A stretch of DNA of 63,767 nt, the filler included, from Folioceros fuciformis (taxonomy: Eukaryota), in the NCBI GenBank assembly GCA_049999805.1. It is 5 parts of 4 records of this genome, joined end to end, with 100 filler letters (N's around TTAATTAATTAA, not from the genome) between each part and the next. Parts side by side here need not be neighbours in the genome. Positions count along the whole stretch, not along the records: positions 18,193 to 38,716 come from JBNGIO010005682.1; 4 more parts are not named here. One strand, given 5' to 3'. Below are positions 11,810-35,690 of the stretch, piece after piece. The translations under genes and the position numbers were made by a program. Position 1 is the stretch's first letter; the number at the start of each line of letters is the position of its first letter. The notes under the pieces are model-generated. The model saw only the letters and a program-made list of their open reading frames with translations. It did not search any database and was not told the origin of the DNA.

Positions 11810-12295
11810 TTCAGGGGATAAGGGAAGGAGAAACTCTCCCTCCACTGCGTGCAACGGGCGGATTCGTCCCCCTCTGCTCGGCTTACGGCTAGTCAGTCTC
11901 CCTCTCACACACTCACTCCTTCACCCTTCTCCTCCTTACCCACTCGCTCTTCACTCGCCCCTTCTCGCTCACTTCAACTCCTTATCTTCTCACACACACT
12001 CTTCTTCACACACGCTTTTCCCCACCGGATTTGAAATGCAGCCAAAGGGTCAGGAAATAAGGGAAGGAGGCGCTCCCCTTCCACCCCGCGCAACTGGCGG
12101 ATTCGTCCCCCTCTTCTCGGCTATGGACCACAGACAGCCGTTCAAGGAATAAGGGAAGGAGAAGTTCTCCCTCCACTCCGCGCATCGGACTGATTCGTCC
12201 CCCTCACCACTCACCGTAGAACACAACTAGCAATGCAGGGAATAAGGGAAGGTGACCTTCCACTCAGCAGGCTCTTGCTGATTCGTCCCCCTTAC
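11810..12295. repeat. Four dispersed ~60-nt modules in copy A
   Basis: Consensus GGAATAAGGGAAGGAG-N4/5-CTCCC(T)TCCAC...GGCGGATTCGTCCCCCT at ~11813, 12053, 12147 and 12238. Confidence 0.8.
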
Positions 12296-12695
12296 CACCA
12301 ATTGTGGAGCAAAAATCTCTCGACCACCCTTATGAGCGTCGCGCACATGCTGCCCACCTAGACATCCCCAATCCAGCTAAGGACAACGCGAGGACCTTGA
12401 CTGAGAAAAGTTGCCAACTTTTGCTGATTAGTGAGGCATCAACATGCCTCTTTGTACACATGCCAGGCGGAATCGTAGCCGCCATTAAGTTCAATCTCAA
12501 GCAGTCATGTGCTCTTAATTATGAGCGGCATCAGGTCAAAGAAAGCATCTTCACTAAATGAAAAGATCTTACTAAATGTTATTATAAGATGCAATGAATT
12601 CTGGCCTATCCTATCGCCGCGCTCGCCTCCTATCTGGCCTTCACGTAACCCTCCCCTTGCCGCCAAATCCCTGGGCCCTCCTTCCTCTTTGCTAG

Positions 12696-14900
12696 TTAGG
12701 CAGATCCTCCCATAAAACCTCTATCTCGCTCTCGCTGCCGCCTGTTGCTGAGGACCATCATGGGTTCTTGCTCCACCCATGCCTGCGCTTCTTCCTCTGT
12801 TAGTTCCTCCAAGACTGCCTCCGAATAACGAGGCAATCCCCACACCCGGAAGTAGTGGGAGAAGCATCCCCTGCGAGTCCTTAGTTGTAGGCAGTACGCC
12901 CTTGTCCCTCCTATTTCCACACGCACATGGACAGTCAGGTTAAGTACACGGTCCCCATTCTCATACAAGCCAAGAACATAAGTTTCCTCATCCAGATGTT
13001 GTAATACAATCTGGCCCCCTACTGCAGATGAGGTGCTTACCCCCTCTTCCCGTGGGCTACCCCAAACTGCCTGTCTTCTGCTCTCCAGGGTACTGGGCTG
13101 CCGCTATTCCCTGCCTCGTCCTCCTTGTGCGAATCACCATCCTAGCTCTTCTGGTTGCGGGCTCCACGACTGCTGCTGCTTCCTCTACCCTGGTAGGGCT
13201 GTCCTCTACTGGCGTGGCCTCCTTCTGATCGGTAGCGGCTTCGGCTACCTTGGTCGCGGACCTGCTACTCCGTTTGACTCTCCCTTTCCCTTTCACCCGG
13301 CTCCGGGCCTCATCGCGTTCCCATTTATAACGGTCTGCGAGTTTCTGAACCTTCTCCACTGCGCCCGCCTCCTGCTCCTGTGCTCTCAACAGCTCATGTT
13401 GCATTTCCTGGTTGGCTTCGTGGACCTCCTTGACTTGAATCAGGAGCAGTTCTTGCTAATCTTTCATGGCCTGCATTTCCTCCCGAGCTCGGTGTCCTTC
13501 CTCCTGCGCCTGTTCCTTTGCTGCACTCAAGGCTTGTCGAGCTTCCTCCACTTGCTCCCGCCTTGCTTCTGCCTTAGACAGCTTGGCCTGCACCTCCTCT
13601 TCTTGCTGCCCTTGCATGCTCCGCCAAGTGAGCGCCCGTGCAGCCTGGTCTAGCATATCTGCCTACGCCTGGACCATGGCCGCTGTCAGGCCTAGTAAAT
13701 CCACCTATTGGGGCGTGCCTCCAGTAGCCATTCCTTTGTCCAGGATCCCCCTTCCCAGCAGTGCGCGTACTCTGGCCAAATCCTCCTCCTGCAAATTCGC
13801 CACCAAGGGGGTGGCCCTGAAGATCTCTTCCCACCCCGAAAAGAGTTCTTCCCCCGGGGTCAGCCCTAACTTCTCTGCCACCTCAGCCGGTTTTGCCCCC
13901 TTCGCTGGCGCTGATTCCTTGGGTTCGGTTGAGGGGGTGCTCGGTTGCCTGTCCCCTGTTTTTCGGGCAGACTCCTGCAGCGTCGAATCTACTGCTGCCC
14001 TGGTAACGTGCGCACTGACCTTCCTCCTCTTCGCGGGGGTCTTTTGTCCGACCCCTGCCTTTCGCTTCCTGCTGACTGTCACCTCCTCCTCTGGACTCCC
14101 CGTTGCTCTAGACTCCTAGCTGCTGGACTCGACCTCCTCCTTGGGCTCCTCCGGCTTCTACTTGACCTCCCGGACAGGCTTCCACATGTGCAGGGAAGCC
14201 ACCACTTCTAACTCTGGCATATTATTAGTATAGGAATACAGATGGACCAGGAAGGGTGAGATCACAAACGGATAGGGGGTCGGAGAAGTCAAATTCTGCC
14301 TCTTCTAGATAATTTTCCCCCAGTCGATCCTGCTCCCCTTGATAACTTCGTGTAGGAACAGCAGCATGTGGTTCGACAGGTAGTCTTGCTTCCTGGGCTG
14401 CAAAAGCATAGGAGCCACCTAGCCAGACCCATGAGCTGGGCGGTCGCCATCTCTTGCGCCAGCCAGTTGTTGGCCTCCCTTCCGATTCCGGATTTGAACA
14501 GTGCCGCTACCGCCACCGTGGTGCTGTGCTTCCTCAGGGACTCAATCACAAGTCCCCCGGCTTCCTCTTGACTCTGCCCATACACTGTCTAATCAACTCT
14601 ACATCTAAGTCTTGGGGTCTCTCCCTGGTCCCTTCTCCTTTGGTCTTGTTCTGCAATCGGTGAGTGCACTCTTGCACTAGAGCGGGGGTCACATGGTTCC
14701 ACCTCTTGGCCATGAACCCGAGGCCTAGCTCCTCTACCAGCCCTCCGACTCTGGCCTTCCAATGGTCCATGTTGGGCCAGAGGGCTACCTCCACCTAGGG
14801 CAACGGCTCAAGCGCGGCATCCCTGAACGACTCTACCTGCGCCACGTATGTGGTTACTCCCTCCATCGGTCTCCGCTCCACAGTCGTCCTGGGTGCCGCC
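12696..14900 (-). pseudogene. Decayed long ORF of unknown function in copy A
   Basis: Fragments VALWPNMDHWKAR, RIDWGK, ISPFLVHLY, RKRK/KRRK, a long heptad region and YENGDRVLNLTVHV join into one frame across stops and frameshifts. Homologous to 32075-34697. Confidence 0.7.
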
Positions 14901-15231
14901 GCCTCTCTTGATACTAGCACAATACCTCTTGAGACCCAAGGAGATCTTGAGCATAATACCCCGGCCGATTCCCAACCTAAGCCGCTTTCGCACCCATCTT
15001 ACCAAAAAAAACAAAAAAAACACCAAGTCTCGCCCTTGGTCAGGGGAATTCTAAACATTTTTCTGTTCACAGGTCCCGAGGTTTTGAGTTTAGGAGTAGG
15101 GTTGACCAATAATTGGTCCGTGGACCAAGTCAAGAGGGGTGCTACTTGTTCCTTGGCCCTCGGTCCTTGAGCAAGTCCTAAAAAGCCTATACAAGGAGCC
15201 CCCCCCCCCCATAGCTTTATGGCTAGATATT

Positions 15232-18092
15232 TGTTGAGTTATCGAGCTCTATATAAGCTAAACTCATGTGGTGTTAGTTATCCCGGTTGGGTTCATACTA
15301 AACTAGTTCTAGTTATTAATGAACTTAAGATAGTGTAGATTATTTCATATTGAACTTGGAAGTTGTGTAGCCCTAAATGTACTACTTAAATGGACACCTC
15401 GGACCTCCATAGTAAGACAGCGGTGATGTGTATTGTTTTTGGTTGTGACCACCAATACCACCCTCTCTTCTCTCCTCTCCTCTCCTACACTTGCACATAG
15501 ACTGGAATCGATCCTATTGACATGGACATGGTATCAGAGCTTGAGAGCCAGATTGCCAAGCATAGCCCAGAGCCGAAGAGCCAGGTGGCTACACATGAGG
15601 GCGGTGCAAGATCGGCGTAGGAGGTGCTGCAAGAGGCAGCAAGAGTGCACACCAAGAGCTGGAGTAGCTACGAGGAGTTGGAGCAGCTTGAAGGGAGATC
15701 GGCAGCAAGCGTCCCGGCAGCTAACTCTCATATTGGTGTGTGCAGGAAGTGAGAAGAAGGGCAACAAGGCCCTATCAGCTTACTGGACGGGATGTTGATC
15801 CCCGAAGCTGTGGAAGGGCTGACAGGTGTAGGCAACAGCTGCAGTAGCCTCAGTAGCTGCAAGAAAGTGTGCTAACCCTAGCTTGGCAGCAGGGAAGGAA
15901 TTGACAAGAAATCTCACGGGAGCTTTGTTGGCAGATCGTCAAGTGTCTGTAAGGACAATCTGATTCATGCAAGGCAGCGTGATTTCGCACCAAATTGCTC
16001 TTAGGAAGAAGAGACTTAAGGTCTTGTGAGTAAAACTCCACTCAGAAGCAATCTCTTTCTTGCAGACATTTATCAGGTGTGAGTACTCAAGAAGGATTGA
16101 GTGTCAACCTTGAGTGGTGGCAAGAATGGCCAGTAACAATATTAACCAGATCGTGCAAGAGAAGCTGGACAAAAACAACTTCCATGCCTGGAAGTTTCGT
16201 TTTACAAACTTTCTTATGGGAAAGGGTTATTGGGACTACATTGAGGGGGAGCATGAAAAACCCCCTGTAGTACTTGAATAGAATGCAACAGCGGAGCAGA
16301 TTAAGGCGCTGAAGGATTGGAATCAAGGATCTCGGAAGGTCATGTATTGGCTGTCAATCAGCATTCATGACACCATGATTGGGCACATATAGGATGCAGA
16401 GTCACCCAAAGAAGCATGGGATGAGTTGGTCAAACTCTATGAGACCAACATGAAGGCAAGGAAACTACAGTTGAAGAATGACTTCAACACAATTATGAAG
16501 AAGAACTTATCAATCAATGAGTATGCGTTAAAGATCAAAGAGATAGTGGAATCCCTTGCGTCCATTGGTGTCAGTGTGGAAGATGACGACAAGGTCGAAG
16601 TTTGCTTACACGGGTTAACACCTGCCTATAAGCAGTTCAAGACTTCCATACAGACTCGAGAAAACATTCCCAATTTCTCAGACCTGATTTCTATGTTGAT
16701 CATAGAGGAGAAAAACCTAGGCGAGGAATCATCCTCTAAGCCTAAGGAAAACTCTGAGCAAGCCTTCTACTCTGGCAGAGGCAGAGGTAGAGCCCAAGGT
16801 GGTAGAGGGCAAAGAGGTGGTAGAGGTAGAAATTCCTACCAAAATCAGCAATAGAATCAGGAGTCCCAGTACAAGAGTACATGTGGAAGAGGAGAAAATT
16901 CTCGAGGCTAGGGGAGTCAAAGAGGACATGGAAATCAACAACAAAATGATGCAAATGCAGACAATAGTGGTTGCTGGACTTGTGGTAGATTAGACCACTT
17001 CAAAAGAGATTGTCCACAGAGAAATCAAGCAACAAGAGGCAGCAGAACAATTATGCCTCAAGCAGCAGTCAGAATGACTCGGACAACTTGTTTGTCATGC
17101 AGCATATGCTTAACTCTGTGTCTGCTAATGGATCTACCAATGGTGAGATTGTGTGGTATGTGGACTCAGGAGCTTCAAACCACATGACATCCCATGGGGA
17201 GTGGTTCAAAGAAATGCAGGTGCTTGACAAACCTGGATATGTGAAAACTGGAGATGACACAACACATGCAATTGTGCATACAAGAACTGTACCTTTGAAG
17301 ATGCAGGATGGCAAAGTGAAGTGCTTGATAGATGTTCTTCACGTACCCAACATCACGAAGAACTTGGTGTTAGTTGGGTAGATGGTTGAGCAAGGACTGC
17401 AGGTTAGGTTTACACCTACAGGACTCTTTGTTGAAGAGTGCAAGAAAGGCGCTCACCTGATTGCTCAAGGGCAGAAGGTTAGACAGATGTTCACCTTGAA
17501 CGTGGAGGTTCCTAAGCTGAAGTCAGCCATGTTTGCGAAGGTTAGGGTACAAAGATAGTGGCAGACTTAGAGATGTGGCACAAACGCATTGGACATGTAA
17601 ATGTGCAGAAGTTGAAGTCCATGCAACATCAGAAGGTTGTCACAGGCATACCCAACCTTACAGAAACTGGACTGCAAGGTGTATTATGTGAAGCATGTCA
17701 ACTTGGGAAACAGCCTAGGAATGCGTTCCCCCATGACAAACATGTCAGCAGATATGTGTTGGATGTTGTGCATTCAGATGTATGGGGTCCTACACAGACT
17801 GCATCAATCGGAGGATGCAAGTACTATGTGACCTTCATTGACGACCACACAAGGAAGGTGTGGGTCTATTTCATGAAAGAAAAAAGTGAAGTGATCACTC
17901 ATTTTCATACTTTCAAGGCGATGGTTGAGAAGCAGACAAGTAGGCACATCAAATGCCTAAGATCTGATGGAGGGGAAGAGTACTTCTCTAGAGAGTTCAG
18001 CAAATTCTTATCAGAACAGGGCATTCAACGGTAGTACTCATGTCATTATACGCCACAACAAAATGGAGTTGCAGAGCGCAAGAACAGGCACA
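15232..18092 (+). mobile_element. Ty1/Copia element, 5' part (truncated by scaffold end)
   Basis: LTR ends ...GACA at 15528; the TGTTGAG start at 15232 is tentative. Perfect PBS TGGTATCAGAGC at 15529-15540. Gag-PR-INT follows. Confidence 0.85.
16126..18092 (+). pseudogene. Copia gag-protease-integrase with multiple stops
   Basis: EKLDKNNFHAWKFR, CWTCGRLDHFKRDC, WYVDSGASNH, WHKRIGH, HSDVWGP, LRSDGGEEY, QQNGVAERKNRH. Confidence 0.9.
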
Positions 18093-18192
18093 NNNNNNNN
18101 NNNNNNNNNNNNNNNNNNNNNNNNNNNNNNNNNNNNTTAATTAATTAANNNNNNNNNNNNNNNNNNNNNNNNNNNNNNNNNNNNNNNNNNNN
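18093..18192. other. Artificial scaffold spacer
   Basis: 44 N + TTAATTAATTAA (stops in all six frames) + 44 N. Confidence 0.97.
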
Positions 18193-19699: not shown

Positions 19700-21000
19700 A
19701 GTATACTCTGTTAAGAAATTTGTTAAGTGGAGATGCTTAAAAGTTTTATGAACTTGATAGTAAATAGTAAGCATGCTAAACCCATGAAGGAATTTTTCAA
19801 TCGATTAGAGATAAGGTTTCCATCAGTAAATGCTATAAAGATAGAAGAGTTGGCCAACTTGAAAAGAAGGCCTAATGAGACCGCGCTCATGTTTCACAAT
19901 CGAACTAGTCACTTGGTAATGGATACATGAATGCATAATGAGATGGAAATGTGTTTTAAATATGTTTGTAATTTGGATGAAGATATTGGGGAAGATGTGT
20001 TTAGAGAGTTGACATCATTATATGGAAAAACATAAATGTTGGAACAAGTTTTTCCAATTGCAGAGAAGCATGAGCAAGCAAGAGCATTGTTGAAAGCCAT
20101 GGGCAGGAAAGTTGGGGGAGATAGAAAGGGAGGTACATTTTTTACGGCGACACCTAGATACAATTATTTGGCCAGATCGAGACCAAGTTGGCAGTAGCAA
20201 ACAACACTAGGAGGATGGATAACAAATATATGAAGCTTGTTTTGAATGTGGAATCGGACAAAGGGATCAAATGTTTGAGGTGTGGGAGTGGTGCACATGT
20301 GATGATGGAATGCATGGTGAAAAAGGATGTAACTTGTAACCATTGTGGGAAAGGACGCTTGGAGAGGGTGTGTTAGCAGAAGCACTCCTCTCTCAGTCCT
20401 ACCAAGCTTGGACAAAGAGGGCAAAATGTTAAAAATGTCAAGCAGGTGCAAAAGGCTGGAAGGAGTCGGGTAGTGGGAACAAGTGAGGAGGTGATAAGCA
20501 ACCGTGTGGATAAGTCTCACAAAATGTTAGAATTGCGTATAGCAAATCTAAAAGCTAATATAGACAAATTGAAGGCTGCTAGTATTCAGAATGGGGTTAA
20601 AATCAAGGAAGTTAAGACTGTGGAAAAGAAGAAAGGAATGAATGAGCAGGAGGAGGCTTACAAAGAGTTTCAGTTGGATGCTTTTGTTTGTGAAATAGAG
20701 TATGAGAAGACTATGAATGTGTGGGGCATGTGGAAGACGGTCAATGCAAGGCTTGGAGGCAAGAGCATGGATCATGGAAGGAAAAATGCTTCAGGGAGAA
20801 AGTACCCTGAGTCATTTTAGGTTATGGATGTGGACCTAAACAATTTTAACACAAGGATGAGGGAGAAGACTGCAAGAGTGTTGGATCAGCATCGAGGTAA
20901 AAAGGTAACAGCCTTGCAGGGGGACTTGATCTTTTGTGTTTAAAATTGGTTGGAGTTATTTAGTAAGGCAAGAATAACAGAAGCAAAAATCCAAGAACTT
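19700..21000 (+). pseudogene. Decayed Gypsy-type gag with two zinc knuckles
   Basis: RFPSVNAIKIEELANLKRRPNETALMFHNR (gag MHR-like), then CLRCGSGAHVMMEC and CNHCGKGRLERVC. Boundaries are approximate. Confidence 0.65.
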
Positions 21001-21004
21001 TTGC

Positions 21005-21849
21005 AAGCCCAAGCTTTTTATTTCTCTGTTTGCTTGTTATACCCTCCACATAGGTGAAATCCGTATCAAAGCCCATTGCCCTCTCTCACTGGGTGACAGA
21101 ACATCCCACATATTCTTCGTGCTGTCAAATACCATTCCAGGTCCATCTCTTTTGAATGCATTAGCGTTTTCAAAGCTGACAAATGTCAGTAACGCCCTTC
21201 TAGGCTCACCCTTTTTACTTACACAATAAAAAGGATGTCTATCATCTAAAACCACCCGCCTACTTCTACGCCCTTCTTCCAAAATTTGATCCACTATAAA
21301 CTCCTCACTCCTTTGCCACTGATTTGCATGTCTTTGCAACAAATGCTTAGGCATCATGTTGTTCCAAAAACAACAAAGTTTGTGAGCCCTTGATCCAAAT
21401 TGCACTGCATCCAACTTTATAGGCTCTCCTAGATCATACTTAATCTCCTCAAAATCTTGTCTCAGCAACACCCTCTTATAGATGTGAGAGTCCACATTCT
21501 CAACTAAATACCCACATTTTGTCTTTTGACACCCTTGTATCAAATTGAGAATCCTTACCAACTCATAAAATAATACATATCTATAATCCATTAACCCTTT
21601 TCCTCTTCTTGTCATTGAGTGTCCCTGACACTCCCAACCCACCACTACAAGATCAATTTCTTCCACCATATGAAATTGCACCAATCCAATAAGCCTAACA
21701 TCTTGTGACCAAGTGGAAAATGCCTTCTTTACAGCCTCAATCTTCAACTACATTGGATACTTTTTACACAGCTTAAACAATTTGGCCTTTGCAATTGTCT
21801 GACAAACTTCATCTAGATCACAATAAATGTAACGTTTAATTGCATATCC
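21005..21849 (-). pseudogene. Dnmt3-like C5 cytosine methyltransferase, copy 2, C-terminal part (motifs II-X)
   Basis: GYAIKRYIYCDLDE; QDVRLIG; IDLVVVGWECQGHS; YLVENV; RAHKLCCFWNN. After a frameshift in a GA run: ERAMGFDTDFT and QRNKKLG. Confidence 0.88.
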
Positions 21850-24800
21850 TGTTGAGATATTCGGCCCTCCTTACATAGCGTAAAATAATGTCAAACAGCT
21901 AACCTAAAATAAGTAGTTAGGGTTAGAAGGTAGTTACACGAATAACCGTCGTGTGCCACCTGCGCACGCACGCACGAACCTACAAGAACTATGTGCGCTA
22001 TTTTTCTTTAATGCAACATTGTATTTTGTGTACACCGCATTATGGTATTAGAGCCTTGACTAGGCGTTGATGAAATCCCTGTGCCCTCTATTGAGGCGCA
22101 GCCTTTTCTGTCACTTTGACAGGAAGCACATGGATAGCACCAACGCCCTGCAAAGTGGTTAGTCAATCAAGAACGACTTACGCTATGAGCAGCCTTCCCC
22201 TTAATCAGTGGGTTGGCTGGATGTTGTTCCTTTGTCAATTCATGGACCCGGAATTAGCCTTCATGATCGATCAAGCAGTGAGTGCTGTGATGTGGCGCAA
22301 CGAGCAGCAGTGGAAGAAGAGGGCGGTTGACATCCACAAGCGTGTCAAGATTGCCCATCAACATTCTTGATTTTCCTGTGCAGTGCGGTCTGGAGGTTAG
22401 CAGGTGTACGCTGCAACTACTAGCCAGTGCAAGGAAGGTGGAAGGGTTGAGGATGGCAAGTCAAAGTGTAGAGCCTGCAAGTAAAGGAACTGGGGAGGTT
22501 GGCGTACCTTGTTCCTAGGATGGCACAACGCCATCGTTTTGGTAGGCGCAATCAGAGGAGCATGCCCCAGTTCATCCCTCCTTATGAAGTGACCAATATT
22601 TTGGTGACCTGAGACAGGCGCACTCAACCTTGGAGGATCCTGAATCTTGCTACAGCAAATCCAAGCATCCATCACTATCGTAGGTCACTGCCGTACAGTC
22701 GATGAGATCCTGTTGCACAGCGTCGTTCAGAGTCAATGTTGAGAAGAGGTCAGGTTGAGTCGCTTGCTGTGTCTGTTCAAAATCTATCCCAACGCCTCGA
22801 TAACATTAACAGCAAAGCATTGTGTTGCACCCAGCATATCCTGTCAACCAATCAAGTTGCTAGACTAGAATCCTACCTACGGCAGTTGGATGTGAAGTTG
22901 TTTGTCTTGCCAAGGCCAAGCCCCACATCCTGGAACATACAAAGATCACTCAGACCTTGGCTTCTAATGAAAACCGTACAGTCTGCATTCACTGTCAACA
23001 GAAACAGGTTGAGTCATACAATGCTGGTAGCTGTGACAGATGAGCAAGAGTCATTCTTACAGAACACCTGCCTAGCTTCGTCATTTAGCACAGGAAGTCG
23101 GTGTTATAGACCTTGATGAGTCTTCAGATAGTGAGTCAATTAGGAGTACAGATGTAGATTCCACCCGTGCATCTGTGAACACAGACCTATCAGAAAGAGA
23201 TATAGTTTGGTTTAGTCGTACCAACATGGATGAGGAGGAGAAGGCCAGAGAAGACATGCAGAATGCATTGCAGTCACTTACCAGCGATGTGTTTAAGGAG
23301 AAAGACCGTATGGTGATTGGTGCTGAATATGACATCTGGGTAATGCGCATGCAAGGTGCGCTTGAAGAAAAGAATCTCTGGCATGTTGTGAGCGGAGAGA
23401 CAGAGAAGCCTGATGTTAATTCTGCCGACCTGCCAGTATGGACTTTGGCTGATATCCATGCAAGGAACCTGATTCGTTCAGGTTTGGGTCCTGAAATGAT
23501 TAAATAGGCCTCAGATGGGCCTGGAGACTCAGCAAAGGAGATGTGGGATCGTTTAGCAATGATGTTTGCCTCCCACGATATGGCTGCGTCTATGTCTACA
23601 TCAGCAAGGTACCACAACCTTAGAATGACAGAAGGTGAGAATGTGGAGCACTACATCGGGAGATTCAGAATCGCACGAGCTAAGCTATGTTCCACAGGTG
23701 TAAAGACTACTGACTACGAAGCTAGTTGCAGGCTGTTGAGTTCATTGCCACCCAGCTTTGGACCCTTTGTCACTGGTCAGCAGGCGATGGCAAAGGTGGA
23801 GGCCCGGTTGTCGAAAGCCTTAAAGATTGATGCAGAACCCTTGACATTTAACGGTGTCGTTGGGGCCATGCAACAAGAGGAAGCCACGCGGCTGTCCTCT
23901 AGATCTAGCAGATAGCAGACACAAGGTCAACAAGCCTTGTTTGCTGGACGGGGCAAACCGTATCAAAGAGGACGTGGAGGTTGGAACTCAAAAAAAGGCA
24001 GCAGACCTAGTTTCTAGTGCTTTTGGACAAGCTTTAGGAAGTAAAAAGAAGGCCGGAAATTGCCATTGGTGTGGCATATCAGGTCATTGGGCTCGAAATT
24101 GCCGGAAACGCAAAGTTGGTGAGCCCAAGAAGGAAGGTGCAGGCTCTCCAGAGGTGCACAATGTGCAAGCTGTTAAGAAGAAAAACCCACAAGTGATACT
24201 TACAATTTGCTTGACCACGGCTGGTACGCATACTTCAGCGTGTTTTGTTGACTCCGGAGCATCTACGCATATCTGTCACAGCAGGTCCTCGTTCAGTGAG
24301 TATGAGAAGTACAGGGACGTGCAGTCCATACTCTTAGGCGATGAGAGCTCACTACCCATAGTTGGGATGGGTACAGTGACCCTACACCTGCATCATGGCA
24401 AGACTCTAGTGCTGCACAACGTTCTTCACGTTCCTGCAGTCACGAAGAACCTGCTATCAGTAAGGAAGCTGACTTCAGACACCACTCTGAATGTGCTATT
24501 CAAGGGAGACAAGTGCATAATTGTGGATAGTGTGCATTCAGATGCCGTACTTGCAGAAGGGTTTCCAGTGAACGAGATATACCAGCTGAGCCTTGAAGGT
24601 AGTAGCTTGCCGATGCTGAATGTTGTTGGTATTCCTGCGAACCTCACACCTGGTGAGATAGCTATGCTTTGGCATCTGCGTTGCGGACATCCACATGGCG
24701 GAAAATTATCAGCAATGTCGAACAACTCATTGTATGCTGATGGGATACCTGGTCAAGTGGGGGACTTACCGCTCTGTGAGTAGTGCATCTATGGGAAACA

Positions 24801-27800
24801 TCATGAGGCTGCCTTTGACAAGACAGGTGCTCATCGTGACTCCACACCTCTGGAACTCGTGCATTCAGATATCTGTGGCCCGATTTCAGTACCTTCCATT
24901 GGTGGTGGGTCATATTTCCTCACTTTTATCGACGATTTCACTTGCTACTACACTTTGTACATACTGAAGTACAAGAGTGAAACCCTTCAGCACTTCAAAG
25001 ATTTCCTGCACATGGGTGAGCGGCAAACTGGCCATAGTTTGCGATGCCTCCGATCCGACAATGGTGGGGAGTACATCTCTGGCAAGTTTAAAGTGTATTG
25101 TCGGGATCTTGGCATCACGAGGCAGCTCATAGTCCCCTACACAGCTCAACTCAACGGCGTCGCAGAGAAGAAGAATCAGCTGTTGCAAGAAACTGCTCGG
25201 GCTTTGCTTAAGCAAGCTAGGCTTCCTAGGCGATATTGGGCTGAGGCCATGAACACTACTAACTACCTGCTCAGCAGGTTGCCTACTTGAGTGTTACCTG
25301 GTAAGACGCCATTTGAGGCGTGGTGGGGACGAAAACCACCAATCCAGCACCTTCGCATTTTTTGTGCTCCAGCATATGCGTTTGTTCCAAAGCCTAAAAG
25401 GACAACAAAGCTGCACGACAGGGCACACCAGTTAGTGTTCATAGGTTACACTGATGGCATCAAAGCTTATAAGCTTTCTGACCCTGAGGCATGCATTGTC
25501 AGTCATGCACGTAGTGTAGTTTTTGATAAACGACGAGTGATGCATCCCCCTACTACCTCCATTGACTCGGACAGAGGTGAAAATGTTCTACCTGAGATAG
25601 TTGAGGACCCCGACGAGGATGATCTAGTCGATGGGGCACCCATGCTGATGTAGATCAGTTTGAAGTTTCATATTTTGGTCAATCTGGCGAGGATGATGAT
25701 GGTCATGATGTTGAGACTGCAATCGAGGGTGATAGTATATCACCTGACACCTATACAGAAGGATTGGAAGCAGCAGAGCCCATAGAGGAGGTACCCATTG
25801 CTGATGTACCTACTTCACAAGTGAGAAGTACATACAATCTGCGTGAAAGAAACAGGCCGTGGAAGGAGCCTCCCCTCGAGATGGAAGACTGGAGGCCTAC
25901 TAGGGTTACTAGATTACAGAAGCAAAAGGGAGGCAAGTCGAATGCTGGTAGTGTCGTTACCTTGGAAGTGCCTGCAGTGGGGGCACCGGCACCAGTACCA
26001 GCACTTGCTGAGGTGGACAGTGAAGATGTAGTTTCAGCTGGGGATGCAACCCCGTCCACGTGGTTTGTTCAAGCCATGGTGGCATCCACCTCGGATTTTG
26101 CTGAACTAGCCTCTATGCAACAAGCATATTCAGGACCTGAGGCAAGATAGTGGAAGAAGGATGTAGAGGATGAGTATGCATCCGTAGTTAAAAATGGAAC
26201 CTGGACATTGGAGGAGTTGCCAAAGGGTAGAAAACCTATCTCATGTAAATGGGTCTTCAAGTGAAGGATGAAAGATGATGGCAGCATTAAACGTTACAAA
26301 GCCAGACTGGTAGCAAGAGGTTTTTCTCAGATTCCTGGCATAGACTTTTCTGACACGTTCACTCCAGTTGTCAAGTTTGCAACCCTTCAAATGATTCTTG
26401 CCATAGCTGCGCATATGGACCTGGATCTAGAGCAAATGGATGTGAAGACCGCTTTTCTACATGGTACTCTTGAAGAAGACATGTACATGGAGCAACCTGA
26501 GGGCTACGTAAAGCTAGGGACAGAGCATCTAGTCTGTAAGCTAAAGAAAACCTTGTATGGACTTAAACAAAGTCCTAGAGCTTGGAATCAGTGGATAGAT
26601 ACTTATCTTAAGAAGATGGGCTTCAAGCAGGGTGATGCTAACCCGGGGCTGTATGTTATGACTGAGGACAAGAGTTTCGTGATACTTCTGTTGTATGTAG
26701 ATGACCTAATCCTGGCTGCAACCACGAGCAAAGGGAGCTTAATGCAGAAGGTTAAATCACTCCTCAAAAAGGAATTCGAGATGACAAAGTTAGGGGAACT
26801 TACATGGTGCCTTGGAATAGACATTGCAAGAGATAGGAAGGCAAGGAGACTTTCCATTTCGCAACATAAGTATGTCAGAGACTACTTGAAGAAGTTTAAC
26901 CTCGAGAATGCGAATGGATGTGCCACTCTGTTGGCCACAAGGCTCAAAATAATGAAGAGCCTGGTTCCCATGATACCTGAAGAAGCTGAAGAGATGTCTA
27001 GGACACCATATCGGCATGTAGTAGGGACCCTAATCTATTTGTCAAATGTTACACGACCAGATATTGCCTTCCCTGTTAGCCTAGAGTCATAGTTCTTAGA
27101 AAACCCTCACCCTAAGCATTGGAGCCAAGTCAAAAGAACGTTCAGATACTTGAAATCCACTCCGACGCATGGCATTACATATGCTGGGATAGAGGAGGAG
27201 CTCTTAACTTTGGAGGGCTTCTGCGACTCAGACTGGGCGTATGACCTAGACAGCAGGAAGTCCCTATCAGCCTTTGTGTTCTTGTTGGCAGGTCCGGTCA
27301 CCTGGACAAGCAAGAAACAAGCAACTGTATCAACTTCGAGCACGGAAGCTGAATACAAAGCACTTATAGTAGCTGCAAAAGAGGCAATCTGGATCAGGCG
27401 GAACCTATCTAATGTTGGGATGAAGCAACCAAGCGCCACCGTTCTTCAATGTGATAATCAGGGCGCCATTGCGCTATCAAGAAACCTTGCTTTCCACTCT
27501 AAGGTGAAGCATATGGAAATACACCACCATTTCATAAGAGAAGTGGTGAGCAACGGTCAAATGACAATCCAGTATATTCCTACAGCTGAGAACCCTGCGG
27601 ATCTACTGACCAAAGCCCTGCCTAGAGAGCTGCACAACAAACATGCAAATAGGCTAGGCATAGCAGCCTGTGAGAAGTAACAACAGATAGTTCGCCTACA
27701 CGCCATCCATCGACAAACTGTAAGCTATGTAGAAGTTTCGACTAGTACCAGTTGAAGTTTTGTCATCAATTCCCACTCGCAGAAGGTAAAGCCTTGTCTT

Positions 27801-28369
27801 CTTGCAGATGAAGGAGGGTGGAGCCCAATTTGCGCCGTGGCAAACCAATGTGCAGCCATTCTGTGTACCGACTAGTAGCAACCGCCGTTGGTCCAAGCTC
27901 AGGTGCTGCGAAGTAGAGAAGAAGAGAGTAGCTTCTGCCTGAATCGTGTTGGAGAGTCTGACGGCTGAGGGTAAGAGTGGCGGCGGGCGATCATCGACAG
28001 TAGGCGCATTTTGGGCAGCTTCAAGCTCTGCAATTACAGTGTCAAGGATTGTGACAACCTAGGCTAGCGCCACAATCAAGGTCTTAAGCGGCCGCCGAAT
28101 CCAAAAAAAAAGAAAAGTGGAGCGTAAGAGCAGCATTAGAAGTATTAACAGTATAAGATAGGACCTCAAGTGGGGGTGTTGAGAAATTTGGCCCTCCTTA
28201 TATAGCGTAAAATAATGTCAAACAGCTAACCTAAAATAAGTAGTTAGGATTAGAAGGTAGTTACACGAATAACCGTCGTGTGTCACCCAGGCGCGCACGC
28301 ACGAACCTACAAGAACTATGTGCGCTATTTTTCTTTAATGCAACCTTGTATTTTTTGTACACCGCGTTA
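21850..28369 (+). mobile_element. Complete Ty1/Copia LTR retrotransposon inserted in DNMT copy 2
   Basis: 193-bp LTRs at 21850-22042 and 28177-28369 (about 12 mismatches; TG...TA ends). PBS TGGTATTAGAGC at 22043-22054. PPT AAGTGGGGG at 28168-28176. TSD TATCC/TAACC. Confidence 0.95.
23175..27680 (+). pseudogene. Copia gag-pol with stops and frameshifts
   Basis: FKEKDR, CHWCGISGHWARNC, FVDSGASTH, HSDICGP, SDNGGEY, YKARLVARGF, LYVDD, DSDWA, SSTEAEY, ADLLTK. Confidence 0.92.
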
Positions 28370-28374
28370 TAACC

Positions 28375-28710
28375 AACAGCCAACATCGCTTCCAAACTAG
28401 ATGCAATTCTAGCAAACAACTCAACCACAACCAATCCATATGCAGACAAACTCAAAGTCACAAGTTTATTACACACAAGTTCCAATTTATAGATTGCCTC
28501 CTTTGTACAGGGTTGACTCTTATCATCCAACTGAAATTCAGCTTGCCTCTTTTCAAGTTCTCTAAAAATTCTAGCTAACACTCTAGCAACATCTGTTTTT
28601 ATCGAGTCATCCTCCACACTAATACTACTGCATTCCTTAGCACACAAATTTTGCATATGACACACAACCCACAACTTATCTTCTTCATCCTCCTCATCCA
28701 TCCCCTCAAA
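28375..28710 (-). pseudogene. DNMT copy 2, N-terminal part (acidic linker and motif I)
   Basis: GLVVVELFARIASSLEAMLAVG joins in frame to YAIKRYIY at 21849 once the Copia and one TSD are removed. Confidence 0.85.
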
Positions 28711-29399
28711 GAAGGTGCCACGTTTACCACACATGCACGCAGGAATTCACTCTCCAGGTGCTTGCAACATCATGCTTGCGTGCACGAATTCGGGAACTTG
28801 GGAAGCACCCAGCAGTCTAGCACGGACAATGGCAGTGGTGGTGCCCAACAACATCGACACCCAACAATCACGACGTGACCCGGATCCCGGTTGCTAGGCG
28901 GCAGGGTCAAGACCAGGCTGCAAGGCAGCCTAGATGCCGGCTACGATCCCCCCCATTTGAATGTGGAGGCATGAAGGAGAAGGAGGAGGAGAAGGTGGCA
29001 TTGGGTGGCTCAAATGTTTTAATTGTGTCATTGCCTCCATACTGTGGGAAGACCATGCACTCTTTTCTTGTTCTATCCATGACTAAGAGATTTAGTAAGT
29101 AAAACCTTGAGGGTACTATGTTAGGAATTGCCTTAACATCAATGGCTTAGTAGGTTTTTCCAGGCTGCTTCTAAAAGCAGTTGCCTCCATAGTAGATATT
29201 TACAAGCGTGTTTCCATTGTCATGTCAATGGGCTTCTAATTACCAACTACAGGCAGCAATAGCAAACTTGAGGCTGGAGTAGTGACTTGCTTACAAACGG
29301 GCACTTACTTCATGCACATTTTGTATCTTAAGTACGTAAAGGTTGCCTACATTTAGTTGCAATCTTGATCTAGCCTAGAAGGAATGGGTGTACATATCA

Positions 29400-30236
29400 T
29401 CCACCTTCAGCCATCCAATGTAGCATCTAGATGGGCAAATGCTTGCATCATCTACAAGGGAAACATCCACGAACCACTCTTATTGCTACATTTTAGCTGT
29501 ACACTCAATGCATATTAACTACGTAAAAACCACATGAATCCATTTTCACCTTGTATTGCAATCAAACCGACCAACTTTGAGGAGGAAGGGGCATGTCCAC
29601 ACCCTCACACTTTGCTTCCAAAATGTCCTCAATCCTTTCAAATAAATGATGGTGACCTCCATCTTCCACCACAAAAAACCCATACACCCAAGAATCCATT
29701 GTTGGTTTCCTATGCTTATCTACATTGATTGTTCAAAAATGATACCCCCAAGCATTCAATCTGCAATATGTGTTCACTGTGAGTCATGGGCCATCCACAA
29801 TAGCTTTGATGTTAGCAAAATTTGGTCGATCAATCCACACACCACTACGCACACCATTTTGCAACCATGTCAGTAGGTCAAGATTGCTTAACTCCCCATT
29901 TTCCAATGTTTCCCTTAACAGAGTGATGGTATTAGTGTGGAGGAGAATGTGCCGATGAAGCCTCTAATGCTCTAGCCTTGTCAATTCCTTGACCTTAGCA
30001 TTCCCAATGGGACGCTCATTTACCATATCATGATAAACATTGCTTAATAAACTCCCATGATCTTGATTACGGGATGCCATGTACTTGCTTGCAAAGTACA
30101 AGGCATCCATTGGTAAATAACCAGTTGCCATGGATCCTTCAAAGCGTCCTTGATTACGTACATGGTTATGCAACACCACCATGTAATGCTCCATTGGATA
30201 CATCAACCTACAATGGGCTGTCCCCTGGGTCTCCAT
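29400..30236 (-). pseudogene. CACTA/En-Spm TnpD-type transposase fragment
   Basis: GTAHCRLMYPMEHYMVVLHNHVRNQGRFEGSMATGY resembles the TnpD motif GPV.YRWMYP.ER....LK..VRN...PEGS.AEGY. Downstream GYHF and KVKMDSCGFYVVN fit the TnpD C-terminal region. Confidence 0.75.
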
Positions 30237-32074
30237 TTCATGGGGGTGCGAGTGGTGGTAGAGTGGTGATTGAAGTGCGTGAGTGGTGATTGGAGTGTGG
30301 AGCGTTGGAGTGCATGAGTGGTGGTGGAGTGGTGATAGGAGTGTGGAGGTTGGGCGGTGGTAGGGCGTAGGTGTGTGTTACTTTGCTATGCCATCATGTG
30401 ATTGTCAGCTAGGGTTTCCACTCTTTGGGGAAAAGTTTGGATGAGGTGATGCATGGCAAGGACAAGTTCATTAGGAGTTGGGGTGTATGTTTGCGTTCAC
30501 GAGTGGAGGGTAGTAGAGTGGGCTCATTGTACATAAGTAGGTATAGGCACATAGCACCTGTAAGTACGTAGATAAGTAGAGGTACACAACTTTCATACGT
30601 ATGTAGGTTGGTATAGGTATGGAGCGGGGCCAGAAGGAGCAGATTAAGGCCCATGGGTATAGCGAGAGTGGTGCATCCACTATGTTGGGAGCTATTGTTG
30701 GGGTTAGGGCTTGGCACCAACGGTTGTTAAGGTTTGGCATTGACAATTTGGTTCTCCAAGTGCGAGGGGCATGGAGCTTGGGCATGGCTAGTTCTAGACC
30801 ATTAGGAATTTTCTAGTCCAAGGTTACTCATATCCCCAACATTTGAGAGAAATTGAAAGACATACAATTGCGCCTCCTACTTGGAACTCCATCAGTTGTG
30901 AACAACAATGATGAGGAGGAAGAGGATGGCCTTGCAGCAAGTGCCAATAATGGCATTGACTTTGATGAAGAGCATGTCGTAAAGGAGTAGGTGCTAATGC
31001 GCTTTAGGGGATGGGGTGGAGGGAGGATGGGTTGGGGGAACTAGATGTGTGGTAAGGAGAAGTGCATACAAGATGATCTACCATGTTCTCCAAGATCGTG
31101 TGTGCAAAGTGATGAGACTATTCAACGCTCTCAAGTTGAGTTTCTACGACCTTGTCTCCAAGAATGACATAAGTGGCATGCAGTCAAGTCAACAAGGGTC
31201 GGTACGCAGCGGCACCAACCACCTATGATAACTATGACAAAATAAAAACCACACCCTAGTGTAAAGTGACTACGAAGTGAATCAAGCCGCTAGCAATGGA
31301 AGGTCTTTTTAGGTGAAACATTCGGTTGGGCCCAAAGCAAGAAAATCCACACAAGATGCACCCACAACGCATGCCTACCATACTTGAGTAGGAAGAGGAA
31401 GCCGACATGCTAGAACCCACTACCCACAGTTGTGGCAAGCAGTGATAGCGGTCGTCGAAGACCGTTTGTGTGACAAGATTTTTTAGAGGATAGTCCTTTG
31501 CATTGAAGTGTAGATGAATACATGTGGACAATGCCCTTAATGTGTTCTTTCTATTTGCCATTAGGGCTTATTTGTACCTGTACTCTTTTTCCCAGTTTCC
31601 ATTGCACATGGGCATCATATCAATCATTCTAGGGTGTCTCGTTAAGGAACACACCCTGCTCCTAGCCACCATGGTCGTGCCTAGCTCATATTTTTTGATG
31701 GCCACTGTTATTTCAACCCTTAGTTTTTGGAAATGTCTCCAAATCGTCCAATTGGTACCCAAGTTTCACGACCCTTTGTAGATGGAAAAATGTTAAAAAA
31801 CCCCCTCACCAAGTGTAAGACTTGGTTTTATTATTTATTATTTTTTTGATAGGACGGATGCGAAAGCGGCTGAAGTTGGGGATGGGAGGGGGTATATACG
31901 CACAAGACCTCCTTGGGTCTTGAAGTTTTGAGATAGATCAATAACTAGGCCATGGATCAGGTTGGGTAGGTGCTACTTGGGTCTTGATGTTCAGATAAAC
32001 TCTAGGAAGCCTATATAAGGACCCCCCCCCCTACATTTATAGAATAGGGAGTAACCCGCGGGGGAGGGAAGATT

Positions 32075-34697
32075 GTGGACTTAGGCGGAAAAAAGGGACT
32101 TTGTGACTCAGTAACGGTAGGGGAAGATGAGTTGCCATCGTGGAAGACGGAACCGGTTGTGGAATCCTGGCATGGTGATGGAGCTGAAGCATTGCGGACG
32201 AATAGGAACCCTAAGGCGGGACCCAAGGGACTTGGAGTATTTTCGAAGTGGAGCGCAACCATGGCGGGAGCGGCATCGAGGAGCGAACGTGGTGGACATG
32301 ACACAAGGTGCAAGCAAGTGAACGGGGCGCAGGCAGAGCCTGAGCGCGGGACTTGAAGAGGAGCGGAGCACACGGGTACTAGGAGAGGCGGCGGCGCCAG
32401 GACAATAGTGGAGCAGAGTCTGATGGCGGGAGTGATTGCAGACTCGGCATCGGTGGCAACATCCAGGGATGCAGCGCTAGAGCAGGTGCCTCAGGTGGAG
32501 GTAGCCCTCTGGCCCAACATGGGCCATTGGAAGGCCAGAGCCGGAGGGCTGGTGGAGGAGCTAGGCCTTGGGTTCATGGCCAAGAGGTGGAACCATGTGA
32601 CTCCCGCTCTGGTATAGGAGTACGCACACCGGCTGCGAAACAAGATCAAAGGGGAAAGGACCAGGGAAAGACCCCCGGACTGGGACGTCGAGCTGGTCAG
32701 GACGGTATATGGGCGGGGCCAGGAGGAAGTTGGGGGACTCATAATCGAGTCCCTAAGGAAGTGCAGCACCACAGCAACCGCAGCAGTGCTGTTCAAAACT
32801 GGAATCGGAAGGGAGGCTAATGGATGGCTGGCGTGGGAGATGGCAACTGCCCAGCTCATGGGCCTGGCTAGGTGGCTTTTGTGTTTTTTGCAGAATAGGA
32901 AGCAAGACTACCTATCGGACCAAATGTTGCTGGTCCTGCACAAGGTGGTCAAGGGGAACAGGATCGATTGGGGGAAAATTATCTTCGATTGACTGAACAA
33001 GTAGAGACAGAATCTAGCTTCACCAACACCCCGTCCGTCTCTGATCTCCCCCTTCCTCGTTCATTTGTATTGCCATGCTAATAGTCTACCAGAAATAGAG
33101 GTAGTGGCTTCTCTGCACATGTGGAAGCCTATTTGGGAGGTCAAGTCGAAGCCAAAGGAACCCAAGAAGGAGGCAGAGTCCAGCAGTTGGGAGTTGGGAG
33201 CAACAGGGAGTTCAGAAGAGGAGGTGACTGCCAGCTGGAAGAGGAAGGCAGAGGCCGGGCGGAAGACCCTTGCGAAAGCAGGAAGATCAGCGGGCGTACC
33301 ACTAGGGTGGTAGGGGACCCAACGCTGCAAGGTCCTACCTGAAAAGTAAGCAACGAACAACTGGGCACCTCCTCAGCCGAACCCAAGGAATCACCACCAA
33401 CAGAGGAACCGAAAGCGGCTAAGGTGGCAAGGAAATTAGGGCTGACCTCGGGGGAAGAACACTTCTCGCGGTGGGAGGAGCTTTTCAGGGCCACTCCTTT
33501 GGTGGCGAGATTGCAAGAGGAGGATCTGGCCAGGGTGCGCACATTGCTGGGAAGAGGGATCCTGGACAGAGGAATGGCTATTGGAGGCGCACCCCAACAG
33601 GTGGATTTACCAGGCCTAACAGCGGCCATGGTTCGGGCACAGGCGGACATGTTGGACCAAGCTGCACGGGCGCTGACTTGGCTGAGCATGCAGGGGTAGA
33701 AAGAGGAGGAGGTGCAGGCCAAGCTAACTAAAGCAGAAGCAAGGCGGAGGCAACTAGAGGAGGCTCAGCAAGCCCTGAGTGAAGCAAAGGAACAGGCACA
33801 GGAGGAAATATGCCGGGCTCGGGAAGAAATGCAAGCAATGAAGGATCAGTAGGAGCTGCTTCTGACCCAAGTCAAGGAGGTCCATGAGGCTAACCAGGAA
33901 ATGCAACAGGAATTGTTGAGGGCACAGGAGCAAGAGGCGGTTGCAGTGGAGAAGGTCCAGAAGCTTGCGGACCGGTATAAACGGGAACGGGATGAGGCCT
34001 AGAGCCGGGTGAAAGGGAAGGGGAAGGCTAGACGGAGCAGCCGGTCCGCGACCAAGGAAACCGAAGCCGCTACCAGTCAGAGGGAACCCATGCCAGTAGG
34101 GGACAGCCCTACCAGGGTAGAGGAAGCAACGATGGTCATGTAGCCCGCAACCGGAAGAGCGGGGATGGCAACTCGCACCAGGAGGCTAGGGCTGACAGCA
34201 GCAGCGGCCGGAGGGGAAAAAGATTTCCCAGTACCCCTGGAGAGCAAAAGAAAGGTAGTTCGAGGTAGCTCACGGGAGGAGGGGGTAAGCACCTCATCTA
34301 CAGTAGGAGGCCAGATTGTATTACAGCATCTGGATGAGGAAACTTATGTTCCTAGCCTTTATGTGAATGGGGACCGTGTGCTTAACCTGACTGTCCATGT
34401 GCATGTGGAAATAGGAGGGACAAGGGCTTATTGCCTACAACTGAGGATGCGCGGGGGGTGTTTCTCCCACTGCTTCCGGGTGTGGGGACTGCCCCCTTAT
34501 TATTCGGAGGTAATCCTGGAGGAACAGACAGAGGAGGAAGCGCAAGCATGGGTGGAGCAAGAACCCGTGATGGTTCTCAGCAACAGGCGACCAAGTGGTG
34601 GAGGAAGGACCTTTCGGCGGGCCCCGCCCATGCCTTAGCAAGAGAAGTCAGGCGACAGCGGGAGCGAGGTAGAGGTTTTATGGGAGGACTTGCCTGA
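32075..34697 (+). pseudogene. Decayed ~850-codon ORF in copy B
   Basis: CTATATAAGG TATA box at 32011. Successive ORF pieces (32075, 32408, 32786, 33065, 33424, 34165) join through single stops and one frameshift. Includes IDWGKIIFD, ISPFLVHLY, a basic NLS-like patch, a coiled coil and a C-terminal globular segment. Confidence 0.72.
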
Positions 34698-35094
34698 CCA
34701 GCGACAAGGAAGGAGAGTGCGGGGATTTTGCGGTCAGGGGAGGGGTACGCCGAGACTGGATAGGAGGCGAGCGTGGCAATAGGATAGGCCAGAATTCATT
34801 GCATCTTAGAGTTATATTTAGTTAAGATCTAGTGAAGATACTTTCTTGGACTTGATGCTGCTCGTAATTAAGAGCGCCTGATTGCTGGAAACTAGACTTC
34901 ATGGCGGCTACGATCCCGCCTGGTGAGTGTGTACAAAGAGGCATGTTGGTGCCTTGCTAATCAGCAAACAATCGGTGACTCGTTCTAGGCAAGGTCCCCG
35001 CGCTATCCATGACTAGACAAGAGAGGTCTAGGTGGGCAGTGCATGCGCGACGCGCCTGAGGGGAAGCCAAGAGTTTTTGCTCCACAATGAGCGG

Positions 35095-35690
35095 TGAGGG
35101 AGACAAATCCGTAGAACCTTTGCTGAGTGGAAGGTCACCTTCCCTTATCCCCCAAACTGTTTGTTGTGATCCATAGTGTGGAGAAAGGGGAACAAATCCG
35201 CCAGCTGTGCGGAGTAGAAGGGGAGACCCTCCTTCCCTGAATGGCTGCCTGTGGATTGTAGCCAAGGTGAGGGGAACGAATCTGCCAGTGCGCAAAGTGG
35301 AAGGGGATCGCCTCCTTCCCTTATTCCCTGATCCTTTGGTTGCGTTTAAAATCTGCTGGTGAGAAGTGTGTAAGAAGTGATGAGGCGTTGAAGAGTGAGT
35401 GTGTAAAAAGGAGAAGGTTGAAGGAGTGAGTGTGTGAGAGGAGAACTAACTGTGGTCCATAGAGAGAGGACGAATCAGCTGGCGGAGTGGAAGGAGAACT
35501 TCTCTTTCCCTTATTCCCTGAACCGTTGGCTACGTTCTAAGTCTGGTGTCAAAGTGAGTGTATGAGAAGAAGAAGAAGAGAAGGAGTGAGAGAAGACTGA
35601 TTGTGGTCTGTAGCTGAGGAGAGGGGGACGAATCCGCCAGCTGCGTGGAGTGGAAGGAGAATGTCTCTTTCCCTTATTCCCTGAACCATT
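35095..35690. repeat. Five ~60-nt modules in copy B (reverse complement of those at 11810-12295)
   Basis: GGGGACGAATCCGCCAG...GTGGAAGGAGA...TTCCCTTATTCCCTG recurs at ~35098, 35187, 35270, 35467 and 35623. Confidence 0.75.

Follow-up and report, generated by a model that had tools for sequence, protein, structure and literature searches.

A 63,767-base stretch of DNA from Folioceros fuciformis (GenBank assembly GCA_049999805.1), referred to here as the window, contains two sequences related to C5 cytosine DNA methyltransferases (DNMT). One of them (copy 2, on JBNGIO010005682.1) is split by a Copia long terminal repeat (LTR) retrotransposon, which raises the question of whether copy 2 was a host gene broken by the insertion or had itself belonged to a mobile element. 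Copy 2 is very probably a dead piece, with both ends missing, of a Ty3/Gypsy Pol polyprotein that carried a DNMT3-type domain between the aspartic protease (PR) and the reverse transcriptase (RT), the arrangement called class A below. The window is made up of five scaffold stretches (1-18092, 18193-38716, 38817-55100, 55201-60844 and 60945-63767) separated by N44-TTAATTAATTAA-N44 spacers, with further 100-N gaps within stretches. The spacer at 18093-18192 divides the scaffold of copy 1 from that of copy 2, and the initial annotation was correct in placing the two copies on different scaffolds. The features discussed are listed in Table 1.

Table 1. Positions in the window of the two DNMT relics, the Copia insert and associated remnants
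Feature	Position	Strand	Evidence or detail
Copy 2, N-terminal part	28375-28746	-	Translation; linker of about 105 amino acids (aa) plus motif I ELFARIASSLEA at 28422-28387
Copy 2, main C-terminal part	21088-21849	-	Translation; PF00145 19.5 bits; family profile 325.7 bits
Copy 2, in-frame TAG	21748-21750	-	Translation
Copy 2, motif IV GWECQGHS	21639-21616	-	Translation
Copy 2, motif VI YLVENV	21510-21493	-	Translation
Copy 2, motif VIII SRAHKLCCFWNN	21393-21358	-	Translation
Copy 2, tail in shifted frame, ERAMGFDTDFTYVEGITSKQRNKKLGLA (motif IX region)	21002-21085	-	Three-frame translation; second tblastn high-scoring pairs (HSPs) at 21085-21002
Copia insert, whole	21850-28369	+	6,520 bp; LTR pair and 5-bp target duplication
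Copia 5' LTR	21850-22042	+	193 nt; 181/193 identical to 3' LTR
Copia internal region	22043-28176	+	Order gag, Pol_BBD protease, rve integrase, RVT_2, RNase H
Copia 3' LTR	28177-28369	+	193 nt; purine tract ...AAGTGGGGG directly before it
Target-site duplication, 5' copy TATCC	21845-21849		4/5 identical to 3' copy
Target-site duplication, 3' copy TAACC	28370-28374		4/5 identical to 5' copy
Copy 1, DNMT3-type domain, other scaffold	9631-10860	+	tblastn; family profile 321.8 bits
Aspartic-protease remnant directly upstream of copy 1	9263-9433	+	tblastn with P0029 residues 1093-1149, E 8e-7
Possible gag-like remnant, weak	19775-20505	+ (opposite to copy 2)	Colinear tblastn matches of class A polyproteins

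When the minus strand was read, the frame at 28746-28375 ended ...GLVVVELFARIASSLEAMLAV and the frame from 21849 downward began GYAIKRYIYCDLDEV.... The two parts (28746..28375 and 21849..21037) were joined by script, with the junction falling between residues 124 and 125. The rejoined protein matched copy 1 in one tblastn HSP (query 50-373, window 9631-10578, 94/324 or 29% identical, E 4e-43) that passed the junction without a gap. A family profile built independently, from 16 database relatives only, gave a single domain covering hmm positions 3-309 of 343 (325.7 bits), in an alignment that began at residue 106 and was likewise seamless at 124|125. Excision of 21850-28369 and one target copy restores the frame as the initial annotation had proposed, and its description of a second, very divergent methyltransferase copy colinear with copy 1 is borne out. 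The 378 rejoined codons include one stop, against a mean of 30.3 and a minimum of 15 in 2000 shuffles of the same bases, and the coding signature is real.

The surviving domain is an intronless frame of about 1.2 kb. At its upstream edge the open frame has its end at 28746 and the GC content jumps near 28775, from 0.36–0.39 to 0.56–0.62; downstream, homology to the DNMT family ends at about 21002. The motifs translated in the initial annotation can be read on the minus strand as written, but the in-frame TAG had been overlooked and ERAMGF (21085-21002) does not share the frame of the other motifs, the frameshift lying at about 21086-21088 in a GAGAGAG run.

The relatives of copy 2 indicate the kind of protein that it came from. 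With the 236-aa copy 2 frame as query, a full HMMER search of 1.84 billion representatives found, counted as clusters at 50% identity, 528 at E<=1e-3, 275 at 1e-10 and 7 at 1e-30. The best identities to copy 2 were 37–40%, and many of the relatives are 1000–3200 aa long. The Pfam domain PF00145 was clear in close relatives, such as P0002 (63.7 bits), and scored 24.9 bits on a 68-aa piece of copy 1. In 15 of the 20 relatives scanned with Pfam, PF00145 was surrounded by a Gypsy-type PR, RT (RVT_1), ribonuclease H (RNase H or RH) or integrase (INT), and one more carried a gag zinc knuckle. A rough classing of the 202 stored relatives, by blastp with reference segments, placed 89 in class B (RT-RH-DNMT-INT-PHD and fragments of it, 34 being full-length) and 37 in class A (PR-DNMT-RT-RH-INT, with or without PHD, and fragments); 75 were DNMT-only and one was INT-PHD. 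Absence of other domains by Pfam often hides element parts, since the relatives P0029 and P0071, which have PF00145 alone in a Pfam scan, match protease remnants by tblastn. The named relatives are the algae Closterium sp. NIES-53, -54, -65 and -68, Chlamydomonas eustigma and Monoraphidium neglectum, and the bryophytes Marchantia polymorpha, Calypogeia fissa, Sphagnum troendelagicum and S. jensenii. The chlorophytes Chlamydomonas eustigma and Monoraphidium are named members of class B; Closterium and Marchantia fall on the class A side of the trees, and the Calypogeia and Sphagnum matches lie outside the classing.

The two architectures, PR-DNMT-RT-RH-INT and RT-RH-DNMT-INT with a C-terminal PHD finger, were also separated in a tree of the DNMT domain itself. 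In the 54-row tree (IQ-TREE, LG+C20, quick), a branch with 97% SH-aLRT support divided eight class B rows from the class A side, and both window copies were on the class A side. Their terminal branches were 1.27 and 1.15 changes per site. An earlier indication from a 175-row FastTree analysis that the two copies belong to different subclades was dropped, as the better-modelled 54-row tree leaves their placement open. The long branches, the 528 clusters and the presence of paralogous contigs lacking the Copia in the source sample (see below) agree with the suggestion in the initial annotation of a large, old and diversified family. What it had called a DNMT gene copy is, judged by the polyproteins of its relatives, a domain of Ty3/Gypsy Pol instead. 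Capture of the enzyme would accordingly belong to the ancestry of the element family and not to the loci in the window.

Comparison with solved structures (54 matches at E<=0.01) used a family profile that includes the window pieces. The best match was to DNMT3A (2.9e-24), followed by DNMT3B and 3C (about 1e-22), DRM (7.8e-14 to 1e-10), M.HhaI (2.6e-10) and DNMT2 (1e-6), and no DNMT1 or CMT chain was among the 54. The ESM Atlas contributed only generic DNA_methylase clusters, with scores of 0.90–0.92. Ranked in this way, by sequence score and not by a phylogeny with host genes, the family domain is of DNMT3 type without domain rearrangement. As DNMT3A and DNMT3B are the best solved-structure matches, copy 2 might be thought a decayed copy of a host DNMT3 or DRM de novo methyltransferase gene. 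That is very improbable: the 1.2-kb frame has no introns, the nearest relatives, at 37–40% identity, are polyprotein domains and not host DNMT3 proteins, PWWP, ADD and the DRM-type rearrangement are absent with the motifs in linear order from I to X, and motif IV reads WECQ, as it does in 78/173 family domains.

The state of the motifs was compared between the two copies and 173 database domains, from which the family consensus was computed. The named C5-methyltransferase motifs used are I (FxG), IV (P-C), VI (ENV) and VIII (R.R). Motif I is FGG, FAG or FSG in the database domains, FGG in copy 1 and FAR in copy 2. At motif IV, where WECQ (78/173) and WPCQ (50/173) predominate, copy 2 has WECQ, retaining the catalytic Cys, and copy 1 has RECQ. 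Motif VI is ENV in 83/173 and ENT in 56/173 database domains, ENV in copy 2 and EST in copy 1. Motif VIII is nearly universally AHR.R, but copy 2 has AHKLC there and copy 1 has AHCLC. Copy 2 has thus kept the linear order, the catalytic Cys and ENV, while motifs I and VIII are altered and motif IX is out of frame. On the residues present it is homologous to C5 methyltransferases but not a competent enzyme, because motif I reads FAR, motif VIII reads AHKLC and the motif IX region is out of frame. Copy 1 contains two in-frame TAGs (10012 and 10219) and, at 10612-10839, a tandem duplication of 115 bp. Both copies are dead. A separate observation concerns the residue beside the catalytic Cys: Glu replaces the Pro of the usual PC dipeptide in 100/173 family domains and Pro is retained in 60/173. 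Class B domains are mostly Glu-Cys (62/86), and both window copies also have Glu-Cys (in copy 2 within GWECQ, at 21633-21628).

The two copies differ in base composition, copy 2 being the more AT-rich, as had been noted (GC 0.39–0.40 vs 0.51 in copy 1). The ratio of observed to expected CpG is 0.27–0.35 and that of TpG+CpA is 1.36–1.41; in the window as a whole CpG is also depleted (0.46–0.58 per scaffold) and TpG+CpA enriched. Low GC, low CpG and the loss of arginines and a glycine are consistent with decay through deamination of methylated cytosines. The in-frame stops found in the two DNMT relics and the Copia insert are TAG in six of seven cases (10012, 10219, 21748, 23505, 24781 and 27090), with TGA at 25288. 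The TAG in copy 2 aligns with a Gln of copy 1, and the bias is explained by C-to-T change of CAG, a CHG site. The possibility that TAG is a sense codon was rejected, as an intact 805-codon Copia ORF (open reading frame) elsewhere in the window has no in-frame TAG.

These observations bear on whether copy 2 could still be a functional gene, with the Copia, the TAG and the frameshift either intronic or read through. Two features would suit such a gene, namely that the Copia insert together with one target copy is 6,525 nt long, a multiple of three, and that the in-frame stops of the two DNMT copies are all TAG (3/3). It is nevertheless scarcely credible, the least probable of the explanations weighed here. 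At the point of insertion, at the TAG and at the frameshift alike, homology continues from codon to codon, leaving no extra sequence to splice; the 805-codon Copia frame indicates that TAG is not read as sense there; and the arginines of motif VIII and the glycine of motif I have been lost.

The insert itself was identified by its structure. Between 20500 and 29500, a repeat search found one direct-repeat family (21850-22043 and 28177-28370, 94% alike); the final matching base of the pair is due to chance, and after trimming the true LTRs are 193 nt. The insert starts TGTTGAG, and a primer-binding site, TGGTATTAGAGCC, runs from 22043, directly after the 5' LTR. Pfam scores in the internal region were 215.8 bits for RVT_2, 86.3 for Pol_BBD, 46.2 for rve and a weak 19.8 for gag, and the integrase (24784-25290) precedes the reverse transcriptase (26265-27092), which is the Copia order. 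The LTR pair, the 5-bp duplication, the primer-binding site, the polypurine tract and the order of the domains, including RVT_2, all identify the insert as a Ty1/Copia LTR retrotransposon. The initial annotation called it complete. That description holds for the structure (LTRs, target duplication, primer-binding site, polypurine tract and domain order) but not for the coding capacity, since it is interrupted by at least four in-frame stops (23505, 24781, 25288 and 27090) and by two or more frame changes. The insert is structurally complete and has no intact gag-pol coding sequence of the kind that an autonomous element carries.

Counting the LTR differences gave 12/193, the number estimated by eye in the initial annotation, made up of eight transitions and four transversions (Kimura two-parameter distance, K2P, 0.065). 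Plant substitution rates are 1.3e-8 to 5e-9 per site per year. At these rates K/2r would place the insertion at about 2.5–6.5 million years ago, which is likely an overestimate because 3–4 of the 12 differences between the LTRs fall on CpG sites.

Further information on the insertion came from contigs assembled from sequencing runs of one sample, probably the source of the assembly, that were aligned to the window at 90% likeness or more. Three joint forms skipped the Copia (21837>28391, 21844>28391 and 21849>28413). They contained 28, 21 and 37 unaligned letters, respectively; the lengths predicted from an empty site that carries a 5-bp target once are 28, 21 and 38. These contigs represent paralogues rather than alleles, because their letters differ from those of the window; closer paralogues of copy 2 without the Copia are present elsewhere in the same genome. 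The joints support the insertion, with its 5-bp duplication, as real. Over 21088-21849 and 28438-28731 the summed contig depth was about 2–7 times that of the flanks, a figure that is not a copy number, and it fell to the flank level from 28732. Together the contigs support a copy 2 lineage that was multi-copy and still spreading not long before the Copia arrived. The runs containing the copy 2 stretch all came from that one sample, and no RNA run was listed among them. Over 20500-29300, C>T and G>A changes made up 138/157 of the differences in run X3, whereas X1 and X2, also runs of this sample, showed a mixed spectrum. A bisulfite-type library is a possible origin of X3, in which case the run could give the methylation state of the DNMT relics.

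The surroundings of copy 2 were searched for the remainder of a Gypsy element. When 115 long relatives were used as tblastn queries on the flanks (E<=0.1), no PR, RT, RNase H or INT was found beside copy 2. Only chance-level matches (E 0.035–0.08) appeared upstream, and there were weak gag-like matches downstream, made up of P0172 residues 190-237 and 343-422 and P0180 residues 212-314 (E 1.5e-5 to 5e-4). More widely, no Gypsy RT (RVT_1), RNase H or integrase was detected in the window, either by Pfam in its 114 ORFs or by tblastn. Copy 1 has more of its context. The protease remnant directly upstream of it was matched 25 times at the same place (E 1.5e-13 to 0.004), and copy 1 fits class A, as this remnant gives the order PR-DNMT. 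A further aspartic-protease remnant of the class A Gypsy family was seen at 1346-1798 (+), matching P0029 residues 1021-1144 at 36% identity (E 2e-19). At least three or four relics of the DNMT-bearing Gypsy family, copy 2 among them, are present in the window.

Several findings weigh against assigning copy 2 to a Gypsy element of class A. No Gypsy part adjoins it, so that its origin in an element is read from homology; neither LTRs, a gag nor the PR-RT-RNase H-INT order that define Ty3/Gypsy are seen at the locus itself, and membership comes from its homologues. The PF00145 score of the 236-aa ORF (19.5 bits, E 7.5e-4) is below the 22-bit cut-off. The DNMT-only relatives amount to 75/202, although many of these are on short contigs, and the Marchantia proteins of about 1000–1160 aa could be free-standing genes. 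Support for the placement of copies 1 and 2 inside class A is 82%, which does not fix it. The age of the Copia depends on general mutation rates and on LTRs in which 3–4 of 12 differences are at CpG sites. Two of the three joints have a shorter side of fewer than 31 letters (only 21844>28391 reaches 31), all are from the probable source sample, and joint forms, being contigs, give no copy number.

These points leave some room for a pseudogene origin, in which copy 2 descends from a DNMT3-like gene that was free-standing and possibly domesticated, derived from a retrotransposon but outside any element when the Copia arrived. The missing PR, RT and INT would then be expected, as would the shift in composition that lies some 30 bp outside the open frame on its upstream side, and the relatives with PF00145 alone by Pfam (the Marchantia proteins, P0029 and P0071) could be counterparts. 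We consider this unlikely. Multiple sequences with 90% likeness or more to copy 2 occur in the same sample, copy 2 groups with PR-DNMT polyproteins, P0029 and P0071 have protease remnants after all, a gag-like remnant lies 500 bp away, and neither introns, promoter evidence nor a start codon context was found at copy 2.

If copy 2 is a remnant of Gypsy Pol, its history may have run as follows. The domain would have gained the TAG nonsense codon and the frameshift, transition-type changes would have converted motif I from FGG to FAR and motif VIII from AHRLR to AHKLC, removing both arginines, and the rest of the Gypsy element would have been lost. The Copia would have arrived roughly 2.5–6.5 million years ago, landing after motif I and before the motifs downstream of it and duplicating a 5-bp target, and would then itself have decayed. 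In living elements, according to the literature, the domain is produced within the polyprotein and may serve to methylate newly made DNA of the element itself. The LTR date had been put forward as a bound on the time of inactivation. It cannot serve as one, as copy 2 has a nonsense codon, a frameshift and lost catalytic-motif residues of its own; the Copia need not be the inactivating event, because copy 2 carries these lesions and is cut off from the other parts of its element. The copy 2 locus has no present function. It is junk DNA that explains nothing about the methylation machinery of the host, and both copy 2 and copy 1 should be left out of counts of DNMT genes for this genome.

The rest of the window is eukaryotic transposon-rich sequence. 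The Pfam matches among the 114 ORFs, each of at least 90 aa, were to transposon domains only, and all were Copia-type (gag, Pol_BBD, rve, RVT_2 and SH3_retrovirus) except for one DUF4218 fragment. This fragment, of the plant-type CACTA/En-Spm transposase-associated kind, is at 29967-30377 (-; E 1.2e-9), 1.2 kb upstream of copy 2, and is unrelated to it. A 159-bp direct repeat, 98% alike (2057-2214 and 8214-8371), brackets a nearly intact minus-strand Copia polyprotein (2953-7395), and is probably the LTR pair of a Copia much younger than the one in copy 2. An element of about 4.2 kb at 10840-15071, with terminal inverted repeats of about 140 bp (10840-10977 vs 15071-14932, 84%), directly borders copy 1 on its 3' side. 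A second, inverted copy of this element, 75–80% alike, was found at 31777-36537 on the scaffold of copy 2; the ORFs of the element had no Pfam match.

DNMT-bearing retrotransposons have been described before. The available text of de Mendoza et al. 2018 (PMC5890265) reports KnitGypsy-Dnmt3 of Klebsormidium nitens, in which an intronless DNMT3-type domain in Gypsy Pol is under purifying selection; there the element is viewed as acquired in the K. nitens lineage, and self-methylation of new copies is proposed. Later papers, in the parts available, cite this as 'streptophytes (Gypsy-DNMT3)' (bioRxiv 10.64898/2026.05.21.726589; PMC12344493). Klebsormidium was absent among the named relatives listed here, the nearest of which were Closterium, Marchantia, Calypogeia and Sphagnum. 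A literature search covering few subscription journals yielded nothing on Gypsy elements with a DNMT in Penium, Closterium, bryophytes including Marchantia, or chlorophytes, and the words 'methyltransferase', 'DNMT' and 'methylation' do not occur in the available part of the Penium genome preprint (10.1101/835561). The assembly described there is strongly fragmented, dominated by Copia and joined by 100-N stretches, an apparent resemblance to the window. We tentatively suggest, as a proposal a little short of evenly balanced, that DNMT3-bearing Ty3/Gypsy elements form an ancient clade, not confined to Klebsormidium, that is spread among green plants in chlorophytes, zygnematophyte-type algae, liverworts and mosses. 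It would have two fixed architectures, with the DNMT between PR and RT or between RNase H and INT with a C-terminal PHD, and mostly Glu beside the catalytic Cys; in this genome, class A would be represented by two or more deeply split lineages, of which one was still multiplying within the last few million years. Retrotransposon-borne DNMT3 domains are much more diverse and broadly distributed across the green lineage than the one published case, from a charophyte, would indicate, and the intact relatives make it possible to test how often the enzyme has been captured and whether element copies methylate themselves.

Among solved structures, the family most resembles the catalytic domains of mammalian DNMT3A, 3B and 3C (PDB 2QRV, 6W89, 6U8P, 8TCI and others; best profile match E 2.9e-24), with which it shares AHRxRxFWxN (motif VIII), ERxxGF...LGRxxxV (motifs IX-X) and the linear motif order. 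Unlike these, it has no PWWP or ADD, lies inside a retrotransposon polyprotein and often has Glu for Pro in motif IV. SymbioDIRS-Dnmt3 and SymbioLINE-Dnmt of Symbiodinium are also cytosine methyltransferases encoded by retroelements, but they have DIRS and LINE backbones and dinoflagellate hosts, and were acquired independently according to the available text (PMC5890265). The EpiLTRs of Cymbomonas and Euglena likewise encode a cytosine DNMT within Pol, in LTR elements that are Ty3/Gypsy-like. As far as the available part of the preprint goes (bioRxiv 10.64898/2026.05.21.726589), they differ in that their DNMT is sister to DNMT4, is at the 3' end of pol and occurs together with a chromodomain and a DAM adenine methylase; not one of these features was seen here. 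KnitGypsy-Dnmt3, as described in the available text (PMC5890265), is the most similar, being a DNMT3-type domain without DRM-style rearrangement, intronless, in Ty3/Gypsy Pol and multi-copy; this likeness is one of description and not of sequence, and copy 2 differs in being a truncated, mutated relic. A DNMT carried by a retrotransposon has been known since KnitGypsy-Dnmt3 was reported in 2018, and the copy 2 locus is a new example.

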